IMG/VR virus record: IMGVR_UViG_3300021256_000003
Span: 64,001 to 128,000 of that record
Strand: one strand, 5' to 3'
Source: a virus
Lineage: Duplodnaviria > Heunggongvirae > Uroviricota > Caudoviricetes
Length of the DNA: 64,000 bases
Shown here: piece after piece, positions 1-52,281 of the stretch
How the letters are laid out: every line of letters begins with the position of its first letter
Numbering within the stretch: position 1 is the stretch's first letter
Position numbers and translations under genes: made by a program
Notes under the pieces: generated by a model
The model's input: the letters and a program-made list of their open reading frames with translations, nothing else
Told to the model about the DNA's origin: nothing
Database searches by the model: none

Positions 1-3000
1 GCACTTATAGTAAATGCCTACGGGATAATATTTGTTCTGACATATCCGTTCAAATGAGGAACTGTAAGAATCATTCTTAACGGATTTGTACGTTCCATTA
101 CTTTATCATAATCGGCACAAGCCTACTATGCATAAGCAGGGTCTTCCATAAATCGAATAAAGTCAATAGGTTCTGCAGTATTTTCTTGATATTCCCCAGG
201 AACATAATTTAATTTATTTCTGTTATTAGTCATATTGACTGTCATTTCAGAAATAGTTTTAATAAATGTAGCGGCATCTTGAGGTTTGTTTTTAACTTCT
301 CTATTACTTGAACAAACTACACCGATAACACGCATTTCTTCGGCGCCTATTGCTAATTTCTTGAGGTCTCCTTTGACAGCTGCAGACGAGTTCCAAATCT
401 ATAAATCTCTTGAATATAGAGAAGTCCATTTCATCAAAGCTCGTAATCCATTGAAAAACTTTTGTTGTTCACTTAATTCTTCATCTGAATTTTGAGTTGC
501 TAAATACAAGTCATTATAAATATCATTAGATTTAATAGATTCTAGAATATCATTGAAATTAGGCTAAATAGCTAATGTATAGACAACTGCTTCAGGATTA
601 GTATAAACTTTACTTTGATTTCTCCAGCACTGTTTAATATATTCTCCTTTTAGCATAGCTGTTAAGATTTTATCTTGACGACTTGCGATATCGCCGTTAG
701 AGAATATAGCTTTACTGTTATCTTCATACCAATCAAAGAACGCTAGAGCCTGTTGATTATTTTGAACTCTATCTTTTATTAAGAATAGTTTACCGTTATT
801 TGTTATTAACTATAAAGCTTCTCCTAAATTTCTTCCAGAAAAACCTTGACTATTTATAACATCAGCTACTACAGCATTTAATCCAAGTTCATTTAGTAAA
901 TCAGTAATAGCATTGTCAACAACTTGTTGTTTTCTATTACCTCCTATTCTCATTCCCTTCGTATAACTATTATAATGAGATAAATACTTGCTAATATTAC
1001 CTTCTAAAACACTAATTGCTCCAATTGCATTTCTTTCAGAAGGCATACCATCATAAGTATTTTCTTCAGTATATTTAGATATTAATTGACCTTGTTCTGA
1101 ATTTATAACATTTACTAAACTTTCAGAATCAAATCCACAAGAAATACCATAGTCATACATACCAATCATAGCTTGTCCAGCATTAATTTTAGCTAAAGTC
1201 AAAGACTTAGCATTATCAACAGCTTCAGACAACATAGCAGCTGCAGTTTCATTAGAATTAGTTTCTAATAAACCGCTACTAAGAATACTATTTATAATAT
1301 TTCTATAAGCAGTATTATTTTGAGAAGATACTTTTGGATCTCCGGACAAGTTAATTGATTGCTCTGTAGTTTTATCATAAATATTATTTACAATTAAAAC
1401 TCTTCCGTTAGTTCTTCCTTTCAATGCGTCAAACTATGTAGGAGTTGCAATTGGAATAGCCTAAAGTTTTCCAGAATTAAGAATTAAGTCATAATAACAT
1501 TGAGTGAAAGCATTTACTTTAATAGCTACAGCTCCAATACCAACGCAGTTTTTACCAACCTATCCTTCACGAATACCTTTTTGTACTGAAAATGCAGATC
1601 CTGGAGCAGATTCTAGGTCTTGAGATGCACTTATTGACTATCCAGCTAGCTTCTGAATAACCTTTGTTGGGACGTCAATAGACACCATAGCTTCCGTAAT
1701 GTTAGAAGGAGATTTAATAACATTCTAAATACGAGTTAAAATGAAATTCTTAATCATATCCTACTTAATATCATTTGAAACTCGATTGATATAATTATTA
1801 TGAGTATTAATAATATCAAGTATTTTATACCCAAGCTCTTCAAGCTATCCTAGATTCATTACCTCTGAATTAATGCCTTCTCTAACAACAATTAAGCTAT
1901 TTGTTTCAGTATAATCAGTATTCTATCCAGTTCTTAAATTCAATCCATTTTCATTTACATCTTTAATAAGATTTGCTAAGGCTTCAATCTATTCAGGAGT
2001 ATTTCTCTTTAGTCTAACAACTAATTCTCCTTTAGAATTGATAGATACATCAAAAATACCTGTATTGGGATCAAATAGATTTCGATATTGAATAAAGAAA
2101 CTATCTTTATTATTATTCTAAATCATTTCACCAGCTTTACTTGTTGGAGCAGGTAATAGTTTAGATGCTTCTAATGTGCTTTTAGACTATAAATTAGCAT
2201 AAGGAGACCAAGCTATATATTTGCCATTCTTAAAAGCAGATCCTAATAGTGTTACAGTATCAATATCCAAGTCTGAACCCTCTAAGAAAAGCTAAAATGT
2301 AGAAACCATAGCTGTGTTAGCATCTCTCGAATCAAATCCAGCAACTTTCTATGTCATAAATGACTGTTGCGATTGTCCAGGAATACGCCCAGCAACCATA
2401 TTTAATGACTCCTCAAAAGATACATACATAGCCTTACCATCAGCAGCAATTTTATTTAATAGTTTAGCATATGGATGATCTTTTGAGTGATTTTTAACAG
2501 TTTCTAAAGTAATACTATTAAAGGCATTAGCTTGATTAGTTAAATCTTCGTACCAAGTAGAAGAAGATAAATCAACTCTTCCTAATTGCGAATTAGGTGA
2601 AGATTCTTTTATTCTTTCAATACTTGCTTGTAATTCTTCTTTAGTAGTTAAATCAACTCCAGTATTAATAATCGCTGCGGTATAAGTTAAATTGTCTAAA
2701 TAGAATCCAACATTTTTTGTGCAGATTATATTCTAACCTTCGTATTCAAAGATTTTATCACGATTAGATGATATATCAAATAGATGTTCGTTATTAAAAT
2801 CAACAGCTTCATAAGTACCATCATCGCGTTTAACCTTTCGTACATTACTGGTCTATTTTACTAACTTCTAAAGTTCTGGACTAGCAGTCTTTAACTATTC
2901 TTCGTCTAAAATATAATAATGCTGTCCGTTCGCAGTTTTAAGTATATATGTACATAATCCTTTAACTCCATCTTTTCCTAAAATAGATGTATATCCTGTC

Positions 3001-6000
3001 TAACGTAATCTATTAATAGCACGTTTTGTAAAGTAATCAGGATCTTCTAAAATTCTTTGTAGATTAGTATGATAATCTAAACCAAATTCTTTACGATAAA
3101 GTTTAGGAACAATTAGTTCATAGGGAATTATGTCAATACTTTTTACATCAACATTAATAGGACCGTCAGATGTATATACAGTTCTATTAGGACCAGTATA
3201 ACTTTTTGATAGCTTTAGTAAGTCATCCTACTATATAACTCTTAAATATGAGTTGGCAATCTCTAAAGTCATTTCGGCAAAATCAGGTTTACATAAGAGA
3301 CGCACTAATAATTGTTCAGTAGTTTCATTATTCGGATTAGGTAAATTACTTGCCATATTTACTAATGTTGTGTAATAATCCTAACCAATAGTTTGTCTAA
3401 CTCGATTTAAGAAATTATGAGTTTGTGCTCCTAATATACCGCTGGTAAGAATATTATAAAGAATTGCAGAATTAGTAGCAGCTATACCTTTAATACTTGC
3501 CAACTAAAATATTTTAGCAGTACTATCTAAATCAAAGATACAAAATTCTCTCAAACCATCACTTGATTTAAAACGAACATTATATGCTGCTAGTTCCCTC
3601 GGTTTTATTATATTTTCATATACTTTAGTTACTACTCTAGTTCCTTCAGGATTTAAAATAAGACGACGTAAATTATAATAGTCTTGTGGTGTATTAATTG
3701 TCTTTTCTTCAGAAATAATATTACCTTCTTCATCTACTTCGTCATATTCAATTATATAATTATGTTGAGTTTCAATATGAGAAATTTGATTCTTAATTGC
3801 CTATTGATTATTACCATCTCTTGTAATATCAAAGATTAATCGAGAACCGTTATTCTCTAAATCACCATTTCGTATAGCCTCTTGTTCTTTACGTAACTAA
3901 ACTTCTGGAGAATCAAATCCTTCAATAGGATCAAAATCTTCAACCTATTCATAATAGTCTAGAGTTTTATCTCCGTATAAAGGGGCAATGTGTCCAGGAG
4001 TAATAACTGCGAGTATACCAGCAAATTTCATTCTAATAGCATTTTTTGTTAAATGCGATGCTACTTTTGAAAATACTTGATTGTAAATAGAATTACTACT
4101 CCAGGCAACTTTACCAATAACATCAGCAGGCGTAATGACCTCTCCTGATTTATATTTATTGACTAAATCTCCCAAAACTTTCTTTAAAGCCTCATTATTT
4201 CCTTTAGTTTCAGTAATGTCTTTAAGGATTTGAAGAGCAATAGTTGTTTGAAGTTTTCCTTTATATCCAGGAACATTATCCAATAATTCTTTAACTCCAT
4301 CAATATAAGGATTTATAGCTAAATCAGTTAATGTAGATAATGCGTAATATATATCAATAGCATCATTCTAAGTAAATCCTCTATTGATACAGGCTTGAAT
4401 GATCTATGTAGGCATAGATACATCCTCATCGTCAGCCTCATGCTCCTTATCCAATTGAACGCCCAACTATCTTACATCGAATGAGAAGAAGTTTAATGGC
4501 ATATCAGTATATAAACAGTCAGATGGGTTAATATTAGTATAAGAGCTTTTAATAGCTCCCTTATTAGCTAAATACTAAATTTCAGAATATTTTAGAGGTT
4601 GATAAAAATCGTCTTGAGTTTTTATTTCAGGACTATCACTAATCTTCCATCCAACCTAGTTGATAGTTTCAACCATACGATGTATAGAATTTTCAGATGG
4701 AATAAGACGTCCGTTAGAACCTATTTCTAAAGAATTATACCCGCCAAATACTTCTGTAAAAATCCCCCAGTTAGTGTTAATATTAACTCTTCGTGTTTCA
4801 ACAACTCCTGTCGTAGCTATACCTGTAGAATTTACTAATACTTCCTGAATTTCAAATTCGCCAGTCAGTTGACCATTTTCATTAGTAATAGGCATTACAT
4901 TCTCTAATTTATAGTAATGTACTTTACCATTTTGTTCACGAGAATAATACACATCACCGTGATTAATTTTATTTCCTGTAATACCATTTCTAGTAAAATC
5001 AACTATAATTCGATTTCCATTCTAGTCAATCCAAGGAATATTAGTCATATTTTTCTGAGCTTGTCTATAAACACCATACTTTCTCATACGGTCATTAGTA
5101 CAAGCAAAAGAAGCAGTTTTAACTGTACCAGCAGCAGCAAGATTTTCGAAGTAGAATGTACCAAAAGGTTTAGTATCAAGACCTACAGCTTCTCCCTCAA
5201 GAGAGTTATTGTTAAGGTAAGCATCCCAACCATTGCCAATCATACTACCGTCAAGAGGAGTATGAGTTCCAACAAATCCCATAGGATTATATACAGAACT
5301 TTCAATATCATCCATGATAGCAATACGACAAGTTCTTGCACATCCGTTTAGAACATTTGGTAAATATGTATGAATAGTAGCAGTTAATGCATTATTACGT
5401 TTATTATAAGCATTCCATCCGCTTCCTTCCAGTTCAATAGCATTCTCACCTTTTTTAGATTTATGATAAACATGTGAACCTACCGTAGTTAAATCCCATT
5501 GTTGAGTAAATAAATAATGAAGTCTATTCATTTTAGATAACATAGGATGTATCTCTATAGCAACATCGGGAAATCCTTGATACTGTTCTAAATCATAAGC
5601 TGTAGTAATTTCATATTCTTCTCCGTCCATAGCAATTGCCTTTGCAATTATCATTTCGCCTTCTTCATTTACCCAATTTGGAAATTGAGTACGTAAGAAA
5701 ATTGCTTCGGGAGAATCAGTATTAGTTGCAGAGTTAGCAAGATTTACTTTAAAATTAGAATTTAATAAATCTCTTGCGGTTAGAATATCCTTCATTCTGA
5801 AAAACTCAGAAGTAGTACTCTAATGATCCACAAAAATAACTCTAGAATCTCTATTATTAGGATCAGATTTTAAAATGTTTATTGCTGTAGGATTAAATCT
5901 TCCATACAAAGATGTTAAAGTAATATTTGGAATTAATAATCCGTTATCATTAAATTTATAATGTAACTCTTCACCCAGTTGTAATGGATTATTTAAATGA

Positions 6001-8975
6001 CTTTGATTATAGTCTCTAGTTAGCATCCATAATCCAGTTTGAATAGCATTTTTACTTTTCTTAGAATAAGCAGCTAAACTTGAATTTGGATTTTGAGAAC
6101 ATTGAACAAAATAATCAGAAAGAAAGTTTAAAAGTATTCTATTTTTAATAACAGGGTTTAATGTATTGTAGTTAGATGGAATCATGTATCTTAATTCCTC
6201 TATACTCTAACCAAATAATCTTTCTCCATTATCCCGTAAATATCTAACAGCAGTCTATAAATCTGTTGCTAAATTATTCCAAATATTTTCATAAACAGGC
6301 CCAAAGGTTTTTATAATAACCTCATTTAATTCATCATCTGTTAAGTCTTTATAAGCTTTTCCAGTAGTCTGTTCTATAGTATTTAAATTGATAAGTAGTT
6401 TATCAATTTGTGGCTTATCTGAATTAACAGTAGGAATAAATCCAACAATACCATTTCTAATAGTATCATATTGATATCTATCATCAACTGCTGCAGTTCT
6501 AGCGTATCCTGCAACAAAATCATTCAAGAAAGCATATTGGAATCCTTCACCGCCGGTAAATGATATAGATTTTTTAGCTGTGTCAGTACTCTTAAATTCC
6601 TTTGCTACTACAGGTTTTAAGAAAAGACTTCTATCATTAATAATATTTAATGATTTTGTAGCTGATGTTTCTTTATTACACTAATCAGTAATTTGTGCAA
6701 GAGCATTACTTTTCAATGTGCTCAACATATAATTTGATACATCAGTTCCCTCACCAGTACGTACTCTAGCAGAAGCAGCAGTACCTTTTAGAATCATATT
6801 TACTTCTGCGAGTTTGTCTACATAAGCTCTATCTTTAGTTCCGAGTATAGAAATAGTACCATAGTTTTGGTTAAATCTTACATCAGATTGTCTAAATTGA
6901 GTAAGCATAATTCTTCTACACGAATCATATGTTCTAGAAGTATTAAGAGTTTTTAATGCTTGAGGTAAGATTTTATTATTATAGTATAAATTAAACAAAG
7001 CACGCCCAGCAACTTTAGTTAATGTACGTACAGCCTCAGATGATTGATTTTTATGTACTTCAAGTAATATTGATTTAAATTCAGGATCTGCGTTTAAATC
7101 AATACCTAAAACCTACATAACAAAATTATTTAATTTATCGTTAGCAGTTTTATGTAGAGAATCATTTCTAAACCATGAAATTCCTTGAGGAATAATTGGC
7201 ACTTGAGCTCCTTCTGGAGTAACTTCAATTGTAATACTAGGACCATCAAGGTTTCCACTTATAGGAATACTAATTGAAAGATTTTGTAAAACTTCAATTG
7301 ACTAATTACTACCTTCTAATGTAACTGCTTTTAATTTGGGTGTTACTTGAACACCAGAATTACGTATAATATCGTCAAAATGATTAGAATCAAAAGCATT
7401 ACTTTGTTCATTAATTCTATTAATTACTGCTTCTTCTTCACGATATTTTGCATAATCAATAAGAGATCTTACACGTTTAATACCATTATCATCCTCATAA
7501 ATTTGACTATAATCAACACCAAATAGAGAATTAGCTAATTGAACAATCGTAGAATACGGTCCATAAGATTTAACATCTTCACAGATTCTTAAAATAGAAC
7601 GATCTCCTTGTCCAAAAATCTCTTTATCGATAGTCCAAATTATATTTTTAGTAAATGGTGATATATTCAAAGATGCTTGACTACTAATTTCAGAATGCGC
7701 TAAAATTTCTACAATATACTGAAAATTTCTAAACGGGTCTTGAGAGATTTTTGCAGCTAATTCGCCAAGTGTCATATTTGGATTTCGGTTGATAAAATTT
7801 CGAGTAGATTGAGAAATTGCTTCTTTTTCTCCAACATTAAATGTTAAATTACCAAGCGATCCAAATTCTGTCCAAGCAGTAGGATTATAAGCTAAGTCTT
7901 TAATAGAACTAATTGCAGAATTAAACTAAGCAAATGATAAATTTTGATTAGTTAGTGGAATATTTGATCTCCATCTATAAAGATGAGAAGATTCAATAAG
8001 ATGCACAGTTACTGATGAAACTAAATCAGCAACATCTTCTACATCATCTCCGAATTTATTACTCCACATATTAGTAGCTGTTGTTATATATCTATATTTC
8101 TAATTGGAATTATGAAATTTATTTATATAACGTGGATCGATTGTAACTACATTACCTATAATCTATTGAATACAGGTATCGAAGTTAGTTAATAAAACAT
8201 AGGCATTATAAGCATCCAGATACTTTTTAGCATTCTCATCACCACTCAAATAATCATTATATTTAATAGTAAGCTAATCGTGAAATTCTCTTTTCATTGA
8301 TTCAGCATCGTTCGGATTTGTTTCATTTTCCCAAACAGCGAATTCAATTGATGCTCTATCCATCAAATCAGCAATACTACGATAACGTCCTGTATTTTCA
8401 TCAAATGGATGTGTAGGTACAACATTTAAATATGAAGCTAATCTATCTGCCAATATATTTTGATAAGCCTTTACATTCATATTTAAACTTTTCGTATCTT
8501 CTGCCAATCGTCTTTCAGGATTACTACGATTAACTAGTAAAGTATCAACAAGTTCTTCTCTAGCTTGGTGTAAAAAGTAATGTCTTGCTAAAGAAATACC
8601 ATACCTATCTTCTAAAAAATCTTCTGTTACTACGCTTTTCCGAGCATTTAAATCCTGTTCATCAAAACCTTCTGCAGCTACTTTGCCATCAATCTAGGCA
8701 GCTAATGCAATATCGCTTACAAAAGCTGCCTAAATATCAGGTAAAATGGCACCAAGTTCTTGACCAGCTTTAGTCTATTTATAACGATTATAAATATCAA
8801 CAAGACTGTTCTAGACTTCAGCACTACTATTATTAAGGTAGATTTGTTGAACTCCTTTTAAGAAAAAATTCTTACGTTCTTCTATCGGAAGGGACTTTTT
8901 CAAACCTACCTTAACAAGTAGCTAAGTAAAGGCTTTTTCTGATGATTGAGGTGTCTAACAATTTACAGTAGCCAT
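1..8975 (-). CDS. Virion-packaged multisubunit-type (double-psi beta-barrel) RNA polymerase, >2990 aa, 3' end outside window (code 15)
   Basis: ATG at 8973-8975 (MATVNCQ...). Track fragments 8274, 7302, 6681, 6255, 5820, 5022, 4656, 3945, 810 and 126 share one frame and each ends at TAG. Catalytic motif GSDLDID (DxDxD) at 2259-2279 is preceded by RIPGQSQQSFM, typical of crAss-like vRNAP. The frame stays open to position 1. Confidence 0.88.
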
Positions 8976-47512: not shown

Positions 47513-47968
47513 TTACTGCATTATTTCATACACAGTACGTTTTCCAATTTTTTTAGCTCGTAAAATTTGGTGTCTATTATTGTTACCATTATATGATACA
47601 TGAACCCAAGCTGGCCCTTTATCATTACCAAATTCATAAATTAACTAATCAAAAGGTAAATTCATACTACGTATCAAATCAAATATTTCTTTATTGCCTT
47701 CTAAGGAAGCATTAGTACAATAAATGTCTGCTGCTTGTCCTTTCATATGTTGAGAAGTTTTAGAACCTCCAATTGCTAAATTTAACATCTTGCAACGAAA
47801 GCCGCTAGACACTATAATTGGTTTACCATATTCCGTCCTTAAAGGATCTAATACATTATCAACTAATGCAATTAAATTGGTTTTAATTTCTTCGGTAGGA
47901 ATATTTTGAATTCCTAGTCTAGATGCAGTAGCACTAGCACAAAGTTCATTAATTGTAAAATATTTCAT
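47513..47968 (-). CDS. Peptidase M15 family endolysin (151 aa, code 15)
   Basis: Motifs PIIVSSGFRC, SQHMKGQAADI and FD(Q)LI...WVHVS. The third Zn-ligand His (47600-47602) is reached only by reading TAG 47645 as Gln. Confidence 0.88.
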
Positions 47969-48120: not shown

Positions 48121-48510
48121 TTATCGATTACATTTAATAACTGCCAAATATATTGACTTTGCTAAATTCCCACTTAATACAGACGCTTCTTCTGAAAAGG
48201 GATCTATATCTAGTGTTTTACAAATATGCATTTCTATATGATTTTTTTCATGATTAAACGTGTCTAAAAATTCAGCAATGGTTGTCGCATTATTAATTAT
48301 CATATAACTTAAATGCCTTTTAAAATCAGAACATATAAATCCAGTATTCTTTCTGTGAATTATAGTAGTATATAATGTAGTTATTACTTTGTTACTAAAT
48401 CCTTCATCCTCCAATTCCTACATAATCTCAAATAGAGATTCTTTTACGGTAATAAAACATATACGGATTGTCCATTGATATTTATCTAAATAAACATCGA
48501 AGTCTATCAT
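48121..48510 (-). CDS. Small HExxH (zincin-like) protein (129 aa, code 15)
   Basis: ATG at 48508-48510 overlaps the upstream TGA. Motif FNHEKNHIEMH...SEEAS. TAA at 48121. Confidence 0.6.
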
Positions 48511-48905
48511 ACGAAATCCTCCCAATCAATAACTTCTCCGTTAGCTACCATAGTAGCATACCAACGTCTCATAGTAGTTCCATCTCCTGCATCTTCATCG
48601 TCGATAGTATCTTTTATATATAATGCAAGATGTGGCTCATCTACTATGCTCGAACCAAAATAGTCTGCTTTACACATATTAGCAACAAAAACATAATCAT
48701 ATCCTTTATTATTTGATAAGACGATGTTTCGATTTGCTAATAATGTATCAACCTATTCTTTAGTATAAGGAGTAATACGTTTATTATTTTTTACCATTTT
48801 AGAAATTGCCCAGTCACATAGTGATTTATTAAAATGCCAACCATAATTTCTTAGGTATTTAACCATGTTTCTGGGATAGCTGTCATAAAGATCTAAAGCA
48901 ATCAA
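48507..48905 (-). CDS. Hypothetical protein (132 aa, TTG start, code 15)
   Basis: Hand translation: IALDLYDSYPRNMVKYLRNYGWHFNKSLCDWAISKM...YDYVFVANMCKADYFGSSI...RRWYATMVANGEVIDWEDFV. One TAG. Overlaps both neighbours. Confidence 0.7.
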
Positions 48906-49126
48906 TAGTAACGATAATAATCTGGTTTCATATTACGATTACGTTTTGTATAGTAATCTCTTTTACCGTAATCATCTTCATCTGGTTCCATATAATTTTT
49001 AGTATCGTAGTTACTAGAATTTAATTCTTCTAGTATATGCATAAGTTTTCCACTTTTGCTTAAAATTTCTTCTACGCAAGATGACATTTTCTCAATTTTG
49101 CTGTCAGTTACTTCTATAATCATCAT
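48902..49126 (-). CDS. Hypothetical small charged protein (74 aa)
   Basis: Intact ORF ending at TGA, with a Tyr/Arg/Asp-rich C-terminus. Confidence 0.7.
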   Translation of the reverse strand: MMIIEVTDSKIEKMSSCVEEILSKSGKLMHILEELNSSNYDTKNYMEPDEDDYGKRDYYTKRNRNMKPDYYRYY

Positions 49127-49128
49127 AT

Positions 49129-49605
49129 TTATTTGTTATAATTATTCATAAAATCCTTAAACATTTCTTTAAGAGAATTAATTTCTTCTTTTAAAGATTC
49201 AGTTTCAAGTTGCTATCTTTCCTTTTCAGCAATTTCGGGATTTAATTGTCTAATAATTTCATCACATCCTGCGATAATCTATTTATGATTATCAATACTA
49301 GATATTATATCCTAACTCTTCTATTTAATAGCCTAAATTTCAGAGTTTATTAAATCTTTATTACAAGATAAAACTATATCACTGCCCACATCTGTTATAT
49401 CTAGATGTGCAGGCAATTTCTGAAAATTAGTAGATACATCATTTACATTAGCAGTGATATCTACCATAGATTCTGAATTATATACTCCTGGATATCTAGG
49501 AATAGGTAATGAGACTGTTAATACTTTACCTATTTCTAATTTAGGAGAAATTCCTTTATGCAGAATATAAATTACATTATTATTCCTTAAATTCTAAAAT
49601 CCCAT
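49129..49605 (-). CDS. Hypothetical protein with C-terminal coiled coil (158 aa, code 15)
   Basis: Begins ATG GGA TTT TAG AAT (MGFQNLRNNNVIYILHKG...). Five further TAGs. TAA at 49129. Absent from the track. Confidence 0.7.
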
Positions 49606-49607
49606 AA

Positions 49608-49943
49608 TTATGCAATTAATTGTAAAGTATTAGTTTGACTCTCATACCAACATAAGTAAATTCCTGTACTAGTAATGTCAGATGCAGTAATAGCATTTCC
49701 ATTTTTACCAGTTAATTCAACACCTTTAGATACTCCTGCCGAAAATACAACAGGTAATGTTTGAGTAGTTGATTCAGGAATATTTTGATCTAGTCTTACA
49801 ATAATCAATCCACGAAAAGGATTTCCAACTTCTCTATGTGGATTAAATTGAAATACTACATTAGAATCAGTTACTTTTACACCAGTACTGCTAATAGTAG
49901 GTATACCATTTTTATTTACATTAATATAAATAGGTAATAGCAT
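49608..49943 (-). CDS. Hypothetical beta-rich protein (111 aa)
   Basis: Track ORF 49608..49967. True start is probably the ATG at 49941-49943 after AAGGAGGT. No TAG. Confidence 0.7.
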   Translation of the reverse strand: MLLPIYINVNKNGIPTISSTGVKVTDSNVVFQFNPHREVGNPFRGLIIVRLDQNIPESTTQTLPVVFSAGVSKGVELTGKNGNAITASDITSTGIYLCWYESQTNTLQLIA

Positions 49944-49957
49944 ACTTACCTCCTTTC

Positions 49958-50926
49958 TTAACCCCAAAGAGTTCCGTTAGTGCCAATAGGACCTAATAGT
50001 CCAGTCTGATAAGCTACTGAAGTAGGTATAGCAATAGTATTATTTGCGGGAACAACAGCAGTAGCAGGTAAATTATTCTGAATTGCAGTAACTTCGTTCT
50101 GTAATGTATTTAATGCTGAAGCTAGAGGACTTGTAGCATTACTTAGCATCTGTGAGAAAATTGCGCTTTGCTGAGCATTATTAATAATAACAGCCTGTTC
50201 AGCATTCTTAGCCACAAGATCTTCAATTTTATCCTGAAGAGCTTGAGTCTGAATCTCGCCAAGTTTATCAAGAATCTTCGTTGTATTAGCAGTATTGACA
50301 TCTCTGATTGTATTCTGAATATCACAAGTTTGAGTTTGATTTTGAAATCCGAGATTTGTAAAACCGCGTTCTACAGTATTTCCTACTGAATTGATGCTAT
50401 TAGTAAGTTGATATGTCTATCTTTCATTATTCAGTTGATTCTAATAACCCATCTCTAAGATACTCTTTTGAGTATTGCAGCAACAATCTTTAAATGCCTG
50501 AATAATATTACAATCTCCAAGATTTATAGCATTAATTACACGTTCAGAACTATATCCAAGCTGACTTCCTACTTCACCAATAGCATAACGTACACCAGAA
50601 ATAGCCTGAGAAAGCATATTAATATCACTACCTGTACGAGTTGCAAAATCTTGTAATGCAGTATTATTACCTTGAATAGCTTGCATTAATAAATCAGAAC
50701 TATGATTATCGGTAATCTGATTTTGAAGCATCTGTAATTGACGTTGAGTATCAGCGGAATTATTACCCCACATACCACCGTTCATCATTGACATAGCATA
50801 AATCCAAATGATATAAGCAAAAGGATTGTTGGCCCAGCCATTCATTCCTCCATTACTCATCATAGCCATTGTTGCTAAGTCATTATTGTTACCATCAGGA
50901 ACAATGTAAGTTTTTGAATCACTCAT
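49958..50926 (-). CDS. Gln/Asn-rich coiled-coil protein with N-terminal hydrophobic segment and DCCC motif (322 aa, code 15)
   Basis: Fragments 50441 and 49958 are in frame, and the linker reads YQNQLNNERQTYQL... with two TAGs. TAA at 49958. Confidence 0.75.
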
Positions 50927-51018
50927 TTTTAAATAAATTTTTAATTAAACATGTATTTTGTTCTAGAACATGTTAATAATATTTATTTAAAATGCGATTT
51001 CAGAAAATTACCAAAAAT

Positions 51019-51061: not shown

Positions 51062-51367
51062 TTAATTTTTATTATGTAACGTACCTAAATAATCATCTAA
51101 TACAGATTTATACCAAAATAATGATTTAGATCCTTCGTGTAACTTCTGACCTTTTGGAATAAATCCATCGCTTACTAATAAATCAAATGAGGATCGACTT
51201 ATTCCTAAATAATCACAAGCTTCTACTTTACTCATGACAGTATCTCCGTTTGATATTAAATCTAATGCGCGAAGTACTTTTAAACATCCATCTTCGTCAA
51301 TATTAGAATTTCCTACTTTTAAGTCATCCACTTTCTACTAAAGTAAATTAATCAAAATCTCTTTCAT
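51062..51367 (-). CDS. Helix-turn-helix DNA-binding protein, AlpA/excisionase-like (101 aa, code 15)
   Basis: MSKVEACDYLGISRSSFDLLVSDGFIPKG is an HTH_17-like motif. ATG at 51365-51367 (ATGA overlap), with tandem TAG TAG at codons 10-11. Confidence 0.75.
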
Positions 51368-51729
51368 ATTTTAGTAATTCCGTATTTAATATGATATATT
51401 GTATATAATATTATGAATACAAACGCCAAAATAAAATAAATTCCATAACTTATTGCTATTGGAATCTATGTATAATAATCAATTGTACCAAAACATACAT
51501 CGATAAGGCAATAATATAGCGGTAATCGATGAGTTATACAAAATTTTAACATAAACGAACTTACTATCATAAATATTAGTGGCAATATTGAAATACCACC
51601 AATAGTAGCTATAATTTCAGCTGAAATATTAAAATATGCAAGAATTAAATGGATAATTAAAAATCCTGCTAGAATAATAGGTAAATATTTTAATATAAGT
51701 AAATAAATTTTGTATAATGTTTTAGTCAT
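51364..51729 (-). CDS. Small multi-pass membrane protein (121 aa, code 15)
   Basis: Several hydrophobic helices. Extends through TAG 51466 to TGA 51364, which overlaps the next ATG. Confidence 0.7.
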
Positions 51730-51783: not shown

Positions 51784-52281
51784 TTATATGGACGTCTCCG
51801 TGTCAATTTTCTCGGCATACGTATTAAATATATCAGTTAGTTCTTCATTTATATTATCTTTTAATATTCTTCCAGCTTCCAAGACAGAATTTATATGTTG
51901 AGCCATAGCTTGACCAAAATCAGATAATTCAACATAAATATATACAGGATTATTATCTAATTCAGCTTTTATTTTCATTTCAGTTAAACCAGCAGCTTTG
52001 GCTATTAAAAAATCATTTTGGTTTTCAAGAGTTAACCAAATTTTATATCCATTATATGAAAATGCAATAATATCGTTAGTAATTTCAGAATTAATAAAAT
52101 CCATTGCCATATCTTTAACTTCTTCTAAAGATGGTTTATAATTGCAAATCACATGGTAACAACTATATTGCTGGTCTTCAATCTCTTTAAATCCAAAATT
52201 TATACAATAAATTTCTTTATTTGGGTTATATTTATAAAATTTTGGTGCGTTAGGGGAATATCCTATTTCTTTAGAAATCAT
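51784..52281 (-). CDS. Hypothetical protein, DUF4376-like (165 aa), translationally coupled to the DGR RT
   Basis: Intact ORF. Segment FSYNGYKIWLTLENQNDF resembles DUF4376-type phage proteins (family recognition only). ATGA overlap with the RT stop. Confidence 0.55.
   Translation of the reverse strand: MISKEIGYSPNAPKFYKYNPNKEIYCINFGFKEIEDQQYSCYHVICNYKPSLEEVKDMAMDFINSEITNDIIAFSYNGYKIWLTLENQNDFLIAKAAGLTEMKIKAELDNNPVYIYVELSDFGQAMAQHINSVLEAGRILKDNINEELTDIFNTYAEKIDTETSI

Follow-up and report, generated by a model that had tools for sequence, protein, structure and literature searches.

The lysis cassettes of phages infecting Gram-negative bacteria, in which a holin and an endolysin are combined with Rz/Rz1-type or T1 gp11-type spanins and with antiholins such as T4 RI and RIII, are among the closest described counterparts of the gene block analyzed here. 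This block spans positions 48121-50926 of a 64-kb window (64,000 nucleotides, i.e. positions 64,001 to 128,000 of the IMG/VR virus record IMGVR_UViG_3300021256_000003), which over its whole length is a minus-strand late region of a crAss-like phage recoded at TAG, and it contains six genes, hereafter g1 to g6. Like a lysis cassette, the g1-based module found here and in related loci stands beside an endolysin or holin gene and forms a late, separately terminated unit; the hydrophobic N-terminus and coiled coil of g1 resemble those of i-spanins, and the small, presumably cytoplasmic partners of g1 resemble T4 RIII. However, the module has neither a sequence or family match to these cassettes nor a lipoprotein partner, the hydrophobic stretch of g1 is too short for a membrane span, and the module coexists with complete holin–endolysin–u-spanin-like sets.

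Other comparisons concern single proteins. In phages of Firmicutes, XhlA of Bacillus PBSX is a membrane-associated coiled-coil protein of about 90 residues that has a C-terminal membrane span and is encoded just before the holin; it is likewise a coiled-coil, membrane-associated accessory in a lysis cluster, but has no known counterparts of g3 and g5 and is not known to resemble the module in sequence. Class I viral fusion proteins and the P22 gp26 needle share with g1 an N-terminal Gly-rich hydrophobic peptide and long helices, predicted in g1 to fold back, with a Cys cluster between them; on the other hand, g1 has no significant sequence match in the PDB, no C-terminal anchor and a non-tail context, and its structural model is unreliable. 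The phage zincin-like proteins (MPTase-PolyVal, SprT-like and ImmA-IrrE M78) resemble g6 in their invariant HExxH motif and downstream conserved Glu, and the g6 model superimposes on a 'PolyVal Metallopeptidase' with a TM-score of 0.86, but g6 is a free-standing protein of 130 residues rather than a domain of a polyvalent protein, and it has no Pfam match to these families. Finally, g5 is by score a member of PF25223 and PHROG 38431, and g1, g2 and g3 are members of PHROGs 16490, 31654 and 28898, respectively; all are families of unknown function.

Gene content and unit of inheritance

When TAG is read as glutamine, open reading frame (ORF) calling yields six co-directional genes on the minus strand of 48121-50926, joined by 4-nt overlaps or 2-nt gaps: g1 (49958-50926; 322 residues, two TAG codons), g2 (49608-49967; 119 residues from a TTG or 111 from the ATG at 49943, no TAG), g3 (49129-49605; 158 residues, six TAG), g4 (48902-49126; 74 residues, no TAG), g5 (48507-48905; 132 residues, one TAG) and g6 (48121-48525; 134 residues from a TTG or 129 from the ATG at 48510, one TAG), the shorter form of g6 having the size of most database homologues. 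Translation table 11 gives gene fragments and no intact gene, and the ORFs stay broken when TGA is read as tryptophan. A preliminary description of this DNA had reported six tightly coupled genes between two terminators, with a DCCC motif in g1 and an HExxH motif in g6. With TAG as glutamine this arrangement is confirmed, both terminators are conserved in relatives, and both motifs are present.

The same description took the six genes to be a self-contained operon and a mobile, co-inherited and undescribed system. The latter, general claim is supported, but the inherited unit is not the six genes. At least 497 IMG/VR loci were found; 80 loci with g1 were fetched from IMG/VR and 64 from the genome collection, and the counts given here are over 150 loci, scored with profiles built iteratively from the proteins of the window. 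The g3 gene accompanies g1 in 138 of these loci, always downstream of it, and g5 is found in at least 117, a lower bound since Pfam detects in locus L041 a DUF7841 (g5) copy that the profile missed. By contrast, g2 was scored in 38 loci, g6 in 28 and g4 in 27. These counts identify g1-g3-g5 as the unit that is inherited; the six-gene form is an expanded version of it, found mainly in recoded crAss-like and related large-phage contigs, and g2, g4 and g6 are add-ons, almost all of them in such loci.

The module is widespread and undescribed in Bacteroidales gut phages, and its genes co-occur in conserved order far beyond close relatives. The complete set recurs, in unchanged order and at comparable gene sizes, in cr271_1 (Intestiviridae), as gp33-gp38, and in Bacteroides phage C3_41T2LP, whose sixth gene was named PolyVal metallopeptidase by its depositor. 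Five of the six occur in cr116_1 (Steigviridae), and partial sets in cr4_1 (Suoliviridae), csAssE-Sib and Dulem virus 40. Two genes upstream of g1, p121 and p101 (see below), are colinear with it in cr271_1, cr116_1 and zeta-type contigs, and in crAss-like phages they belong to the travelling block; the gene order of the zeta-type contigs (p121, p101, g1 to g6, M15 endolysin, scaffold-like protein) is that of the window. Further upstream, between the reverse transcriptase of a diversity-generating retroelement and p121, the window encodes a TAG-free protein of 165 residues (51784-52281; phrog_19239, function unknown), which lies outside the travelling module since only one of the 86 loci scored first (L025) has a homologue.

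It had also been suggested that similar cassettes occur in unrelated gut phages and prophages of both Bacteroidota and Firmicutes. This holds for Bacteroidales phages and for Segatella copri prophages: integrated copies with a nearby tyrosine integrase gene in complete S. copri chromosomes (L105 and L112) establish that prophage carriage is real. It is unsupported for Firmicutes, since the matches assigned to this and other phyla are metagenome-bin contigs, 58-65% identical to Prevotella-type genes, and these phyla are therefore not acceptable as hosts. A 2272-bp contig in the assembly of the marine isolate Vibrio olivae CECT 8064 (L146) carries g1 (30% identity) and g3, which reflects either a much wider host range or contamination.

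No module protein matched a family of known function in Pfam, PHROG, NCBIfam, PADLOC or PDB sequence searches, and none of the six mapped to a head or tail family, in line with the preliminary description, which saw no resemblance to core crAss head or tail proteins; a DNA-level search of the phage collection returned short, distant matches only, and no paper on the module genes was found in the literature searched.

Adjacency to lysis genes

The best evidence as to function is the recurrent adjacency of the module to lysis genes. An endolysin gene lies on the same strand within 4.5 kb of the core in 90 of the 150 loci, at a median distance of 1.2 kb, and one is near the module in 41 of the 56 loci whose flanks extend for 5 kb or more in each direction. 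These enzymes represent four seeded classes unrelated to one another (M15, GH108, GH19-like and L,D-carboxypeptidase-like), and their genes may precede or follow the module. The endolysin adjoining the module in the window (47513-47968, minus strand; 151 residues, one TAG) is an M15 peptidase (Peptidase_M15_3, 1.3e-19; phrog_894 endolysin, 1.3e-40), and an M15 endolysin follows the module in about 20 zeta-type loci. A fifth class, Amidase_2, is found in Parabacteroides phage PD691P6, where a divergent g1 (with the motif ADCCCET), g3 and g5 directly precede a holin gene (Phage_holin_4_1, PF05105; 25.2 bits against a cut-off of 22.2) and then the amidase gene. Such repeated adjacency to non-orthologous endolysins points to the lysis step.

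Holin genes recur in the same neighbourhoods. In cr116_1 the order is holin, endolysin, module; in cr4_1 both endolysin and holin genes are upstream of the module, and in Dulem virus 40 the holin gene is. S. copri prophages have the order helix-turn-helix (HTH) gene, g1, g3, g5, holin, lysozyme, u-spanin-like gene. Prevotella-type phages of three kinds have a holin-like gene, an endolysin gene and a gene for a protein built like a u-spanin, and a small HTH gene with g1-g3-g5 comes before or after these. These u-spanin-like proteins, of 160-177 residues with a lipobox Cys and a C-terminal membrane span, are encoded right after the endolysin (L041, 5827-6360; L064, about 5939-6412; L105, 9903-10424); those of L041 and L105 have no family match in Pfam or PHROGs. 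Because complete holin–endolysin–spanin-like sets stand beside it, the module is most likely an extra layer on the lysis set rather than a substitute for part of it.

In crAss001, which does not have the module, the syntenic slot between the tail-fibre genes and the endolysin, scaffold and major capsid protein genes is occupied by genes annotated as 'lysis regulatory protein' and holin (gp27-gp29). The module proteins showed no similarity by BLASTP to crAss001 gp16, gp17, gp21, gp24 or gp27-gp31.

Two further genes were noted in these neighbourhoods. The gene after the amidase in PD691P6 (L153, 6366-6965) encodes a protein of the DUF6549 family (124 bits) that combines an N-terminal membrane span with a coiled coil; it is built like crAss001 gp27, the protein annotated as 'lysis regulatory protein', and may be an i-spanin-like component of these phages. 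The S. copri prophage of L105 encodes a protein of tail-fibre size (999-6284; 1761 residues) with a CotH-like domain (2e-7).

Module proteins and transcription unit

The anchor protein, g1, consists of a hydrophobic N-terminal stretch rich in Gly, Met and aromatic residues, a long all-helical Gln/Asn-rich coiled-coil region and an invariant CCC triplet. It matches phrog_16490 at 1.8e-21, and its relatives comprise 896 database protein clusters within the E-value cut. Nine homologues that are deeply divergent (28-59% identity) all retain the CCC triplet, and the N-termini of the homologues always show a Gly/Asn-rich region around a short aromatic-hydrophobic stretch. This stretch measures 11-13 residues, and the maximum of the Kyte-Doolittle profile over 19 residues is 0.5-1.45 in 33 of 34 homologues, the usual threshold for a membrane span being 1.6. 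Since it is both too short and, in 33 of the 34, below the threshold, we read it as a putative membrane-associating or membrane-inserting peptide, not a standard transmembrane helix; g1 is probably membrane-associated. The AlphaFold2 (AF2) monomer model is all-helical, with two helices of about 70 residues, and is of low confidence (predicted local distance difference test, pLDDT, 47), for which reason it was not used for fold searches. A PDB sequence search returned no relative of g1, and hence no fibre or needle, and the Protein Atlas, searched with a 98%-identical relative, returned nothing beyond that protein's own viral hypothetical clusters.

The g1 gene is uninterrupted in the window, unlike in several zeta-type relatives (L019, L017, L020-L024 and L151), where an insert of about 0.3-0.9 kb interrupts it directly after a conserved NNP motif; in L148 the split is shorter. 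In L019 (6054-6990) a group I intron (Rfam RF00028, 72 bits, E 5e-18) was recognized in the insert, together with an ORF for an HNH-type homing endonuclease of 180 residues. Note also that the deposited coding sequence of the g1 homologue gp16 of cr4_1 (L002, 5797-6774) has an in-frame stop and is readable with TAG as glutamine.

The two constant partners of g1 differ in character. The g3 protein (phrog_28898, 8e-41) has a conserved N-terminal half, with an ELNP motif in the alignment, and a C-terminal half that matches coiled-coil-type families only. In PADLOC, the sole match of the module was that of this coiled-coil region (residues 82-156) with LmuB, at 5.9e-5. The g5 protein belongs to DUF7841 (PF25223; 103.4 bits against a cut-off of 25.2) and also matches phrog_38431. 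It has 938 related protein clusters within the E-value cut, and all 120 of the relatives listed carry a precomputed Pfam match to DUF7841. It is acidic, with invariant Asp residues that include D103-x-D105. PDB sequence searches with g3 and with the g5 profile gave no significant match, and no mention of DUF7841 was found in the literature searched. In cr4_1, the DUF7841 gene is located upstream, not downstream, of g1 and is annotated 'RNA polymerase sigma factor/ubiquitin-like protein'.

Among the add-ons, g2, described beforehand as beta-rich, matches phrog_31654 at 6.7e-11, and its homologues lie between g1 and g3 in cr271_1, cr272_1, cr273_1 and MT836190; it matched only viral hypothetical clusters in the Protein Atlas and had no significant PDB sequence match. 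The g4 protein is charged, with a Tyr/Arg/Asp-rich tail, and evolves fast: tblastn returned just two weak matches, and positional equivalents of 74-85 residues are present in cr271_1, cr116_1 and C3_41T2LP. The g6 protein has relatives in 338 representative clusters. In 112 relatives W13, H87, E88 and H91 never vary, and E107 hardly does. In the AF2 model (pLDDT 97), the HExxH motif lies in helix 78-99 and E107 starts helix 107-128. The best BFVD match of this model is the protein named 'PolyVal Metallopeptidase' mentioned above, with weaker matches to SprT-like- and IrrE-named proteins. Foldseek found nothing in the PDB at E <=0.001, and a PDB sequence search with the g6 profile found nothing significant. 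A wide structure search (VIA) gave weak matches to the catalytic part of M3 oligopeptidase (Z 5.0) and to M9 collagenase (Z 3.9), with unrelated matches scoring equally. The window protein has no Pfam match, and weak matches to Peptidase_M78, SprT-like or DUF6782 were found for 3 of the 112 relatives, all below membership significance. We therefore call g6 a small zincin-like protein, as its sequence and model suggest, and do not assign it to a named peptidase family.

The block is bounded by two terminator-like hairpins on the minus strand, each followed by a T-run. The upstream one (51058-51021), which separates the HTH gene from g1, was picked up by the terminator scan and has a 16-pair stem with 6 GC pairs. 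Both hairpin and T-run are retained at the same position in ten zeta-type loci, where the alignment of the hairpin shows weak covariation. The downstream one, between g6 and the endolysin gene (48072-48031), is a perfect 15-bp stem with a 10-nt loop, on account of which the scan missed it; relatives keep it at the equivalent site, and 6 of 14 pairs show compensatory changes among them. Rfam gave sub-threshold matches only in the cassette, at the terminator hairpin.

Between the upstream hairpin and g1 lies the 10-bp palindrome GTTCTAGAAC (50960-50969), at a distance of 34 nt from the g1 ATG. The window has no second exact copy of it, and across ten aligned relatives it is unchanged while its flanks diverge. 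The fetched loci, 1.73 Mb in total, contain 20 exact copies, all 20 of which sit 34-53 nt upstream of g1 and fall in loci possessing p101. The palindrome and a conserved TAT box upstream of g1 are the two elements from which we infer a putative promoter, and GTTCTAGAAC may serve as an operator or as a promoter-proximal element. The cassette's candidate regulator, which might bind GTTCTAGAAC, is p101 (51062-51367, minus strand; 101 residues, two TAG), an excisionase/MerR-like HTH protein that weakly matches the TIGR01764 excisionase family. It is 36% identical to gp020 of cr116_1, which occupies the same position there, and has PHROG matches to excisionases and regulators. While p101 itself is upstream of g1 in 29 of 150 loci, a DNA-binding gene almost always precedes g1, of excisionase-like type in crAss-like phages and of DnaA-C-like type in Prevotella-type phages. 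The combination of the palindrome with two conserved terminators indicates that the block is a transcription unit of its own, independently timed.

The gene preceding p101, p121 (51364-51729, minus strand; 121 residues, one TAG), encodes a multi-pass membrane protein with strongly hydrophobic stretches (Kyte-Doolittle 19-residue maximum 2.43). It has no family match in Pfam, PHROG or NCBIfam, and thus none to a holin family. Homologues lie directly upstream of the HTH gene and g1 in cr271_1, cr116_1 and at least 17 zeta-type contigs. It is possibly a holin- or antiholin-type protein.

As regards the recoding, standard-code homologues mostly have Gln at the TAG sites 170 of g1, 109 and 131 of g3 and 51 of g5, and mostly Glu at sites 162 of g1 and 91 and 98 of g3; other residues are found at the remaining sites. 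ARAGORN detected no tRNA gene, hence no suppressor tRNA, in the window despite the heavy sense use of TAG.

Possible functions of the module

Our preferred reading, which we advance tentatively and regard as plausible though short of probable, is that the module may be a separately regulated, membrane-acting accessory of the lysis step. The six genes are the expanded, crAss-type form of a portable late-gene module of Bacteroidales phages, and an HTH protein (here p101, acting on the palindrome GTTCTAGAAC) would time the transcription of this separate unit late in infection. The long Gln/Asn coiled coil of g1 could then bring about its oligomerization, a metal or thiol layer being made by the invariant CCC, and the short Gly/Met/aromatic N-terminal stretch of the protein could attach to or perturb the cytoplasmic membrane from inside. 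The g3 protein and the acidic g5 protein, which have no export signals, would cooperate with g1 in the cytoplasm, and together the three might tune or assist envelope breakdown by holin and endolysin, e.g. by acting on holin triggering or timing or by destabilizing the membrane. The g2, g4 and zincin-like g6 proteins would be lineage-specific accessories, g6 perhaps cleaving a component of the module or a host target. A sequence and hydropathy check of g2-g6 revealed no hydrophobic N-terminal signal-like stretch, no window of membrane-span strength and no lipobox, which fits a cytoplasmic site of action. As for a holin identity, none of g1-g6 contains a 19-residue hydropathy window of 1.6 or more. 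Moreover, the module is not a known lysis part (holin, endolysin or spanin), since complete sets adjoin it in several phages. A stronger proposition, which we consider rather doubtful, is that g1-g3-g5 represents an unrecognised class of phage late proteins, namely a cytoplasmic-face, membrane-acting coiled-coil complex which Bacteroidales phages require, besides holin, endolysin and spanin, for timing or completing their release from the host.

Several points weigh against the proposed role in lysis. The link is one of guilt by association, with no homologue of known function, and lysis genes usually stand beside tail-fibre genes at the end of the late operon, where unrelated accessory genes commonly land. 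In about 40% of the loci no seeded endolysin is nearby, some of them being cut by contig ends and some possibly using other enzymes, and the 150 loci are phylogenetically non-independent, so that there were fewer separate events than the counts suggest. Recombination genes precede the module in C3_41T2LP, where no lysis gene is annotated within 7 kb of it. Phages with complete holin–endolysin–u-spanin-like sets have no obvious missing lysis function, and the low confidence of the g1 monomer model (pLDDT 47) counts here as well.

An alternative is that the module is carried by the virion, for envelope penetration or as a fibre. In that case g1 would be a trimeric coiled-coil needle or fibre, comparable to the gp26 needle of P22 or to the fusogenic segments in pb2 of T5, with a hydrophobic Gly-rich N-terminus that inserts into host membranes at DNA delivery, and g2 and g3 would either be beta-domain subunits attached to it or help in its assembly. 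In database records, g1 homologues bear the depositors' labels 'outer capsid protein/viral fiber' or 'spike protein/glycoprotein'. The all-helical prediction with its two helices of about 70 residues would suit such a protein, whose Gly-rich hydrophobic N-terminal peptide, heptad regions and C-x8-CCC motif presumably recall class I fusion proteins. The module, too, often comes directly after tail-fibre genes, and virion proteins need no export signals. However, the annotated late region of crAss001, from the portal to the RNA-polymerase genes, has neither room for the module nor a homologue of it. Structural genes do not usually form an independently terminated unit that has a DNA-binding gene of its own, the whole lysis cassette stands between the module and the tail genes in L041 and L064, the genomic position varies (as in C3_41T2LP), and the PDB contains no sequence match to any fibre or needle. 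We consider a virion role unlikely. The secreted fibre with a processing protease which the preliminary description had offered as an example fares no better: there are no export signals or lipoboxes, the g1 stretch is too short for a membrane span, and the HExxH protein is absent from most copies.

We also judge it unlikely, to a similar degree, that the module is a moron-type accessory unit, borne by temperate and virulent phages alike, that serves to manipulate the host or competitors (superinfection exclusion, envelope remodelling or counter-defence) and for which the vicinity of lysis genes is a permissive insertion site. A promoter region of its own, as inferred above, and flanking terminators are what one would look for in such a unit, as are its variable accessory gene content, its presence or absence within Steigviridae (cr116_1 has it, crAss001 does not), its position close to the integrase end of integrated prophages and the probable membrane association of g1. 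Yet the deep conservation and fixed order of the module across very different phages and hosts are unlike those of fast-evolving exclusion genes, and g1 has been invaded by a group I intron carrying a homing endonuclease, as typically happens to phage genes that are conserved and important. In addition, no PADLOC defence family was matched besides coiled-coil noise, and the five different classes of adjoining endolysin are hard to explain by insertion-site preference alone.

It is still less probable that g1 is a spanin equivalent that fuses inner and outer membranes at the last step of lysis, with its partners as cofactors. The module does adjoin the endolysin, g1 does share with i-spanins a coiled coil that comes after a hydrophobic N-terminus, a search of the 64-kb window brought up no u-spanin-like or lipoprotein candidate, and the crAss001 genes in the same slot encode coiled-coil membrane proteins annotated as lysis regulators. 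Nevertheless, the hydrophobic stretch of 11-13 residues, with a 19-residue maximum below 1.6 in 33 of 34 homologues, does not suit such a role. Nor is there a lipobox in g1-g6 or a lipobox partner within the window, g3 and g5 have no export signals, and the module co-occurs with genes for proteins built like u-spanins in L041, L064 and the S. copri prophage L105. The idea of g1 as a plain transmembrane i-spanin is rejected on the grounds of its hydropathy and of these co-occurring genes.

Finally, a regulatory switch, in which g6 as an ImmA/IrrE-like metallopeptidase would cleave an HTH repressor and thereby control late genes or induction, could draw on the DNA-binding gene that precedes g1, on the invariant palindrome and on the few g6 relatives and BFVD matches that recall Peptidase_M78 (ImmA/IrrE), IrrE and SprT-like proteins, but it is very improbable and is rejected as the main function, since g6 is missing in 122 of 150 loci while HTH-g1-g3-g5 persists, the HTH type differs by lineage (excisionase-like or DnaA-C-like), and g1, g3 and g5 are left unexplained.

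Returning to a membrane-acting accessory of lysis, its interest lies in the phages concerned. How crAss-like and other Bacteroidales gut phages exit from their hosts is poorly understood, and they persist without obvious lysis in culture. The module is very common in these phages and is tied by position to five endolysin types. Its function is testable because there are cultivable carriers, namely Parabacteroides phage PD691P6, Bacteroides phage C3_41T2LP and the prophages of sequenced Segatella copri isolates, and the palindrome with its neighbouring HTH gene offers a handle on the timing of late genes in TAG-recoded phages. If the proposed g1-g3-g5 complex does exist, crAss-like phages would have elaborated it with a dedicated membrane protein, an operator-binding HTH protein and a small zincin, and it would be a missing part of their poorly understood lysis and persistence behaviour.

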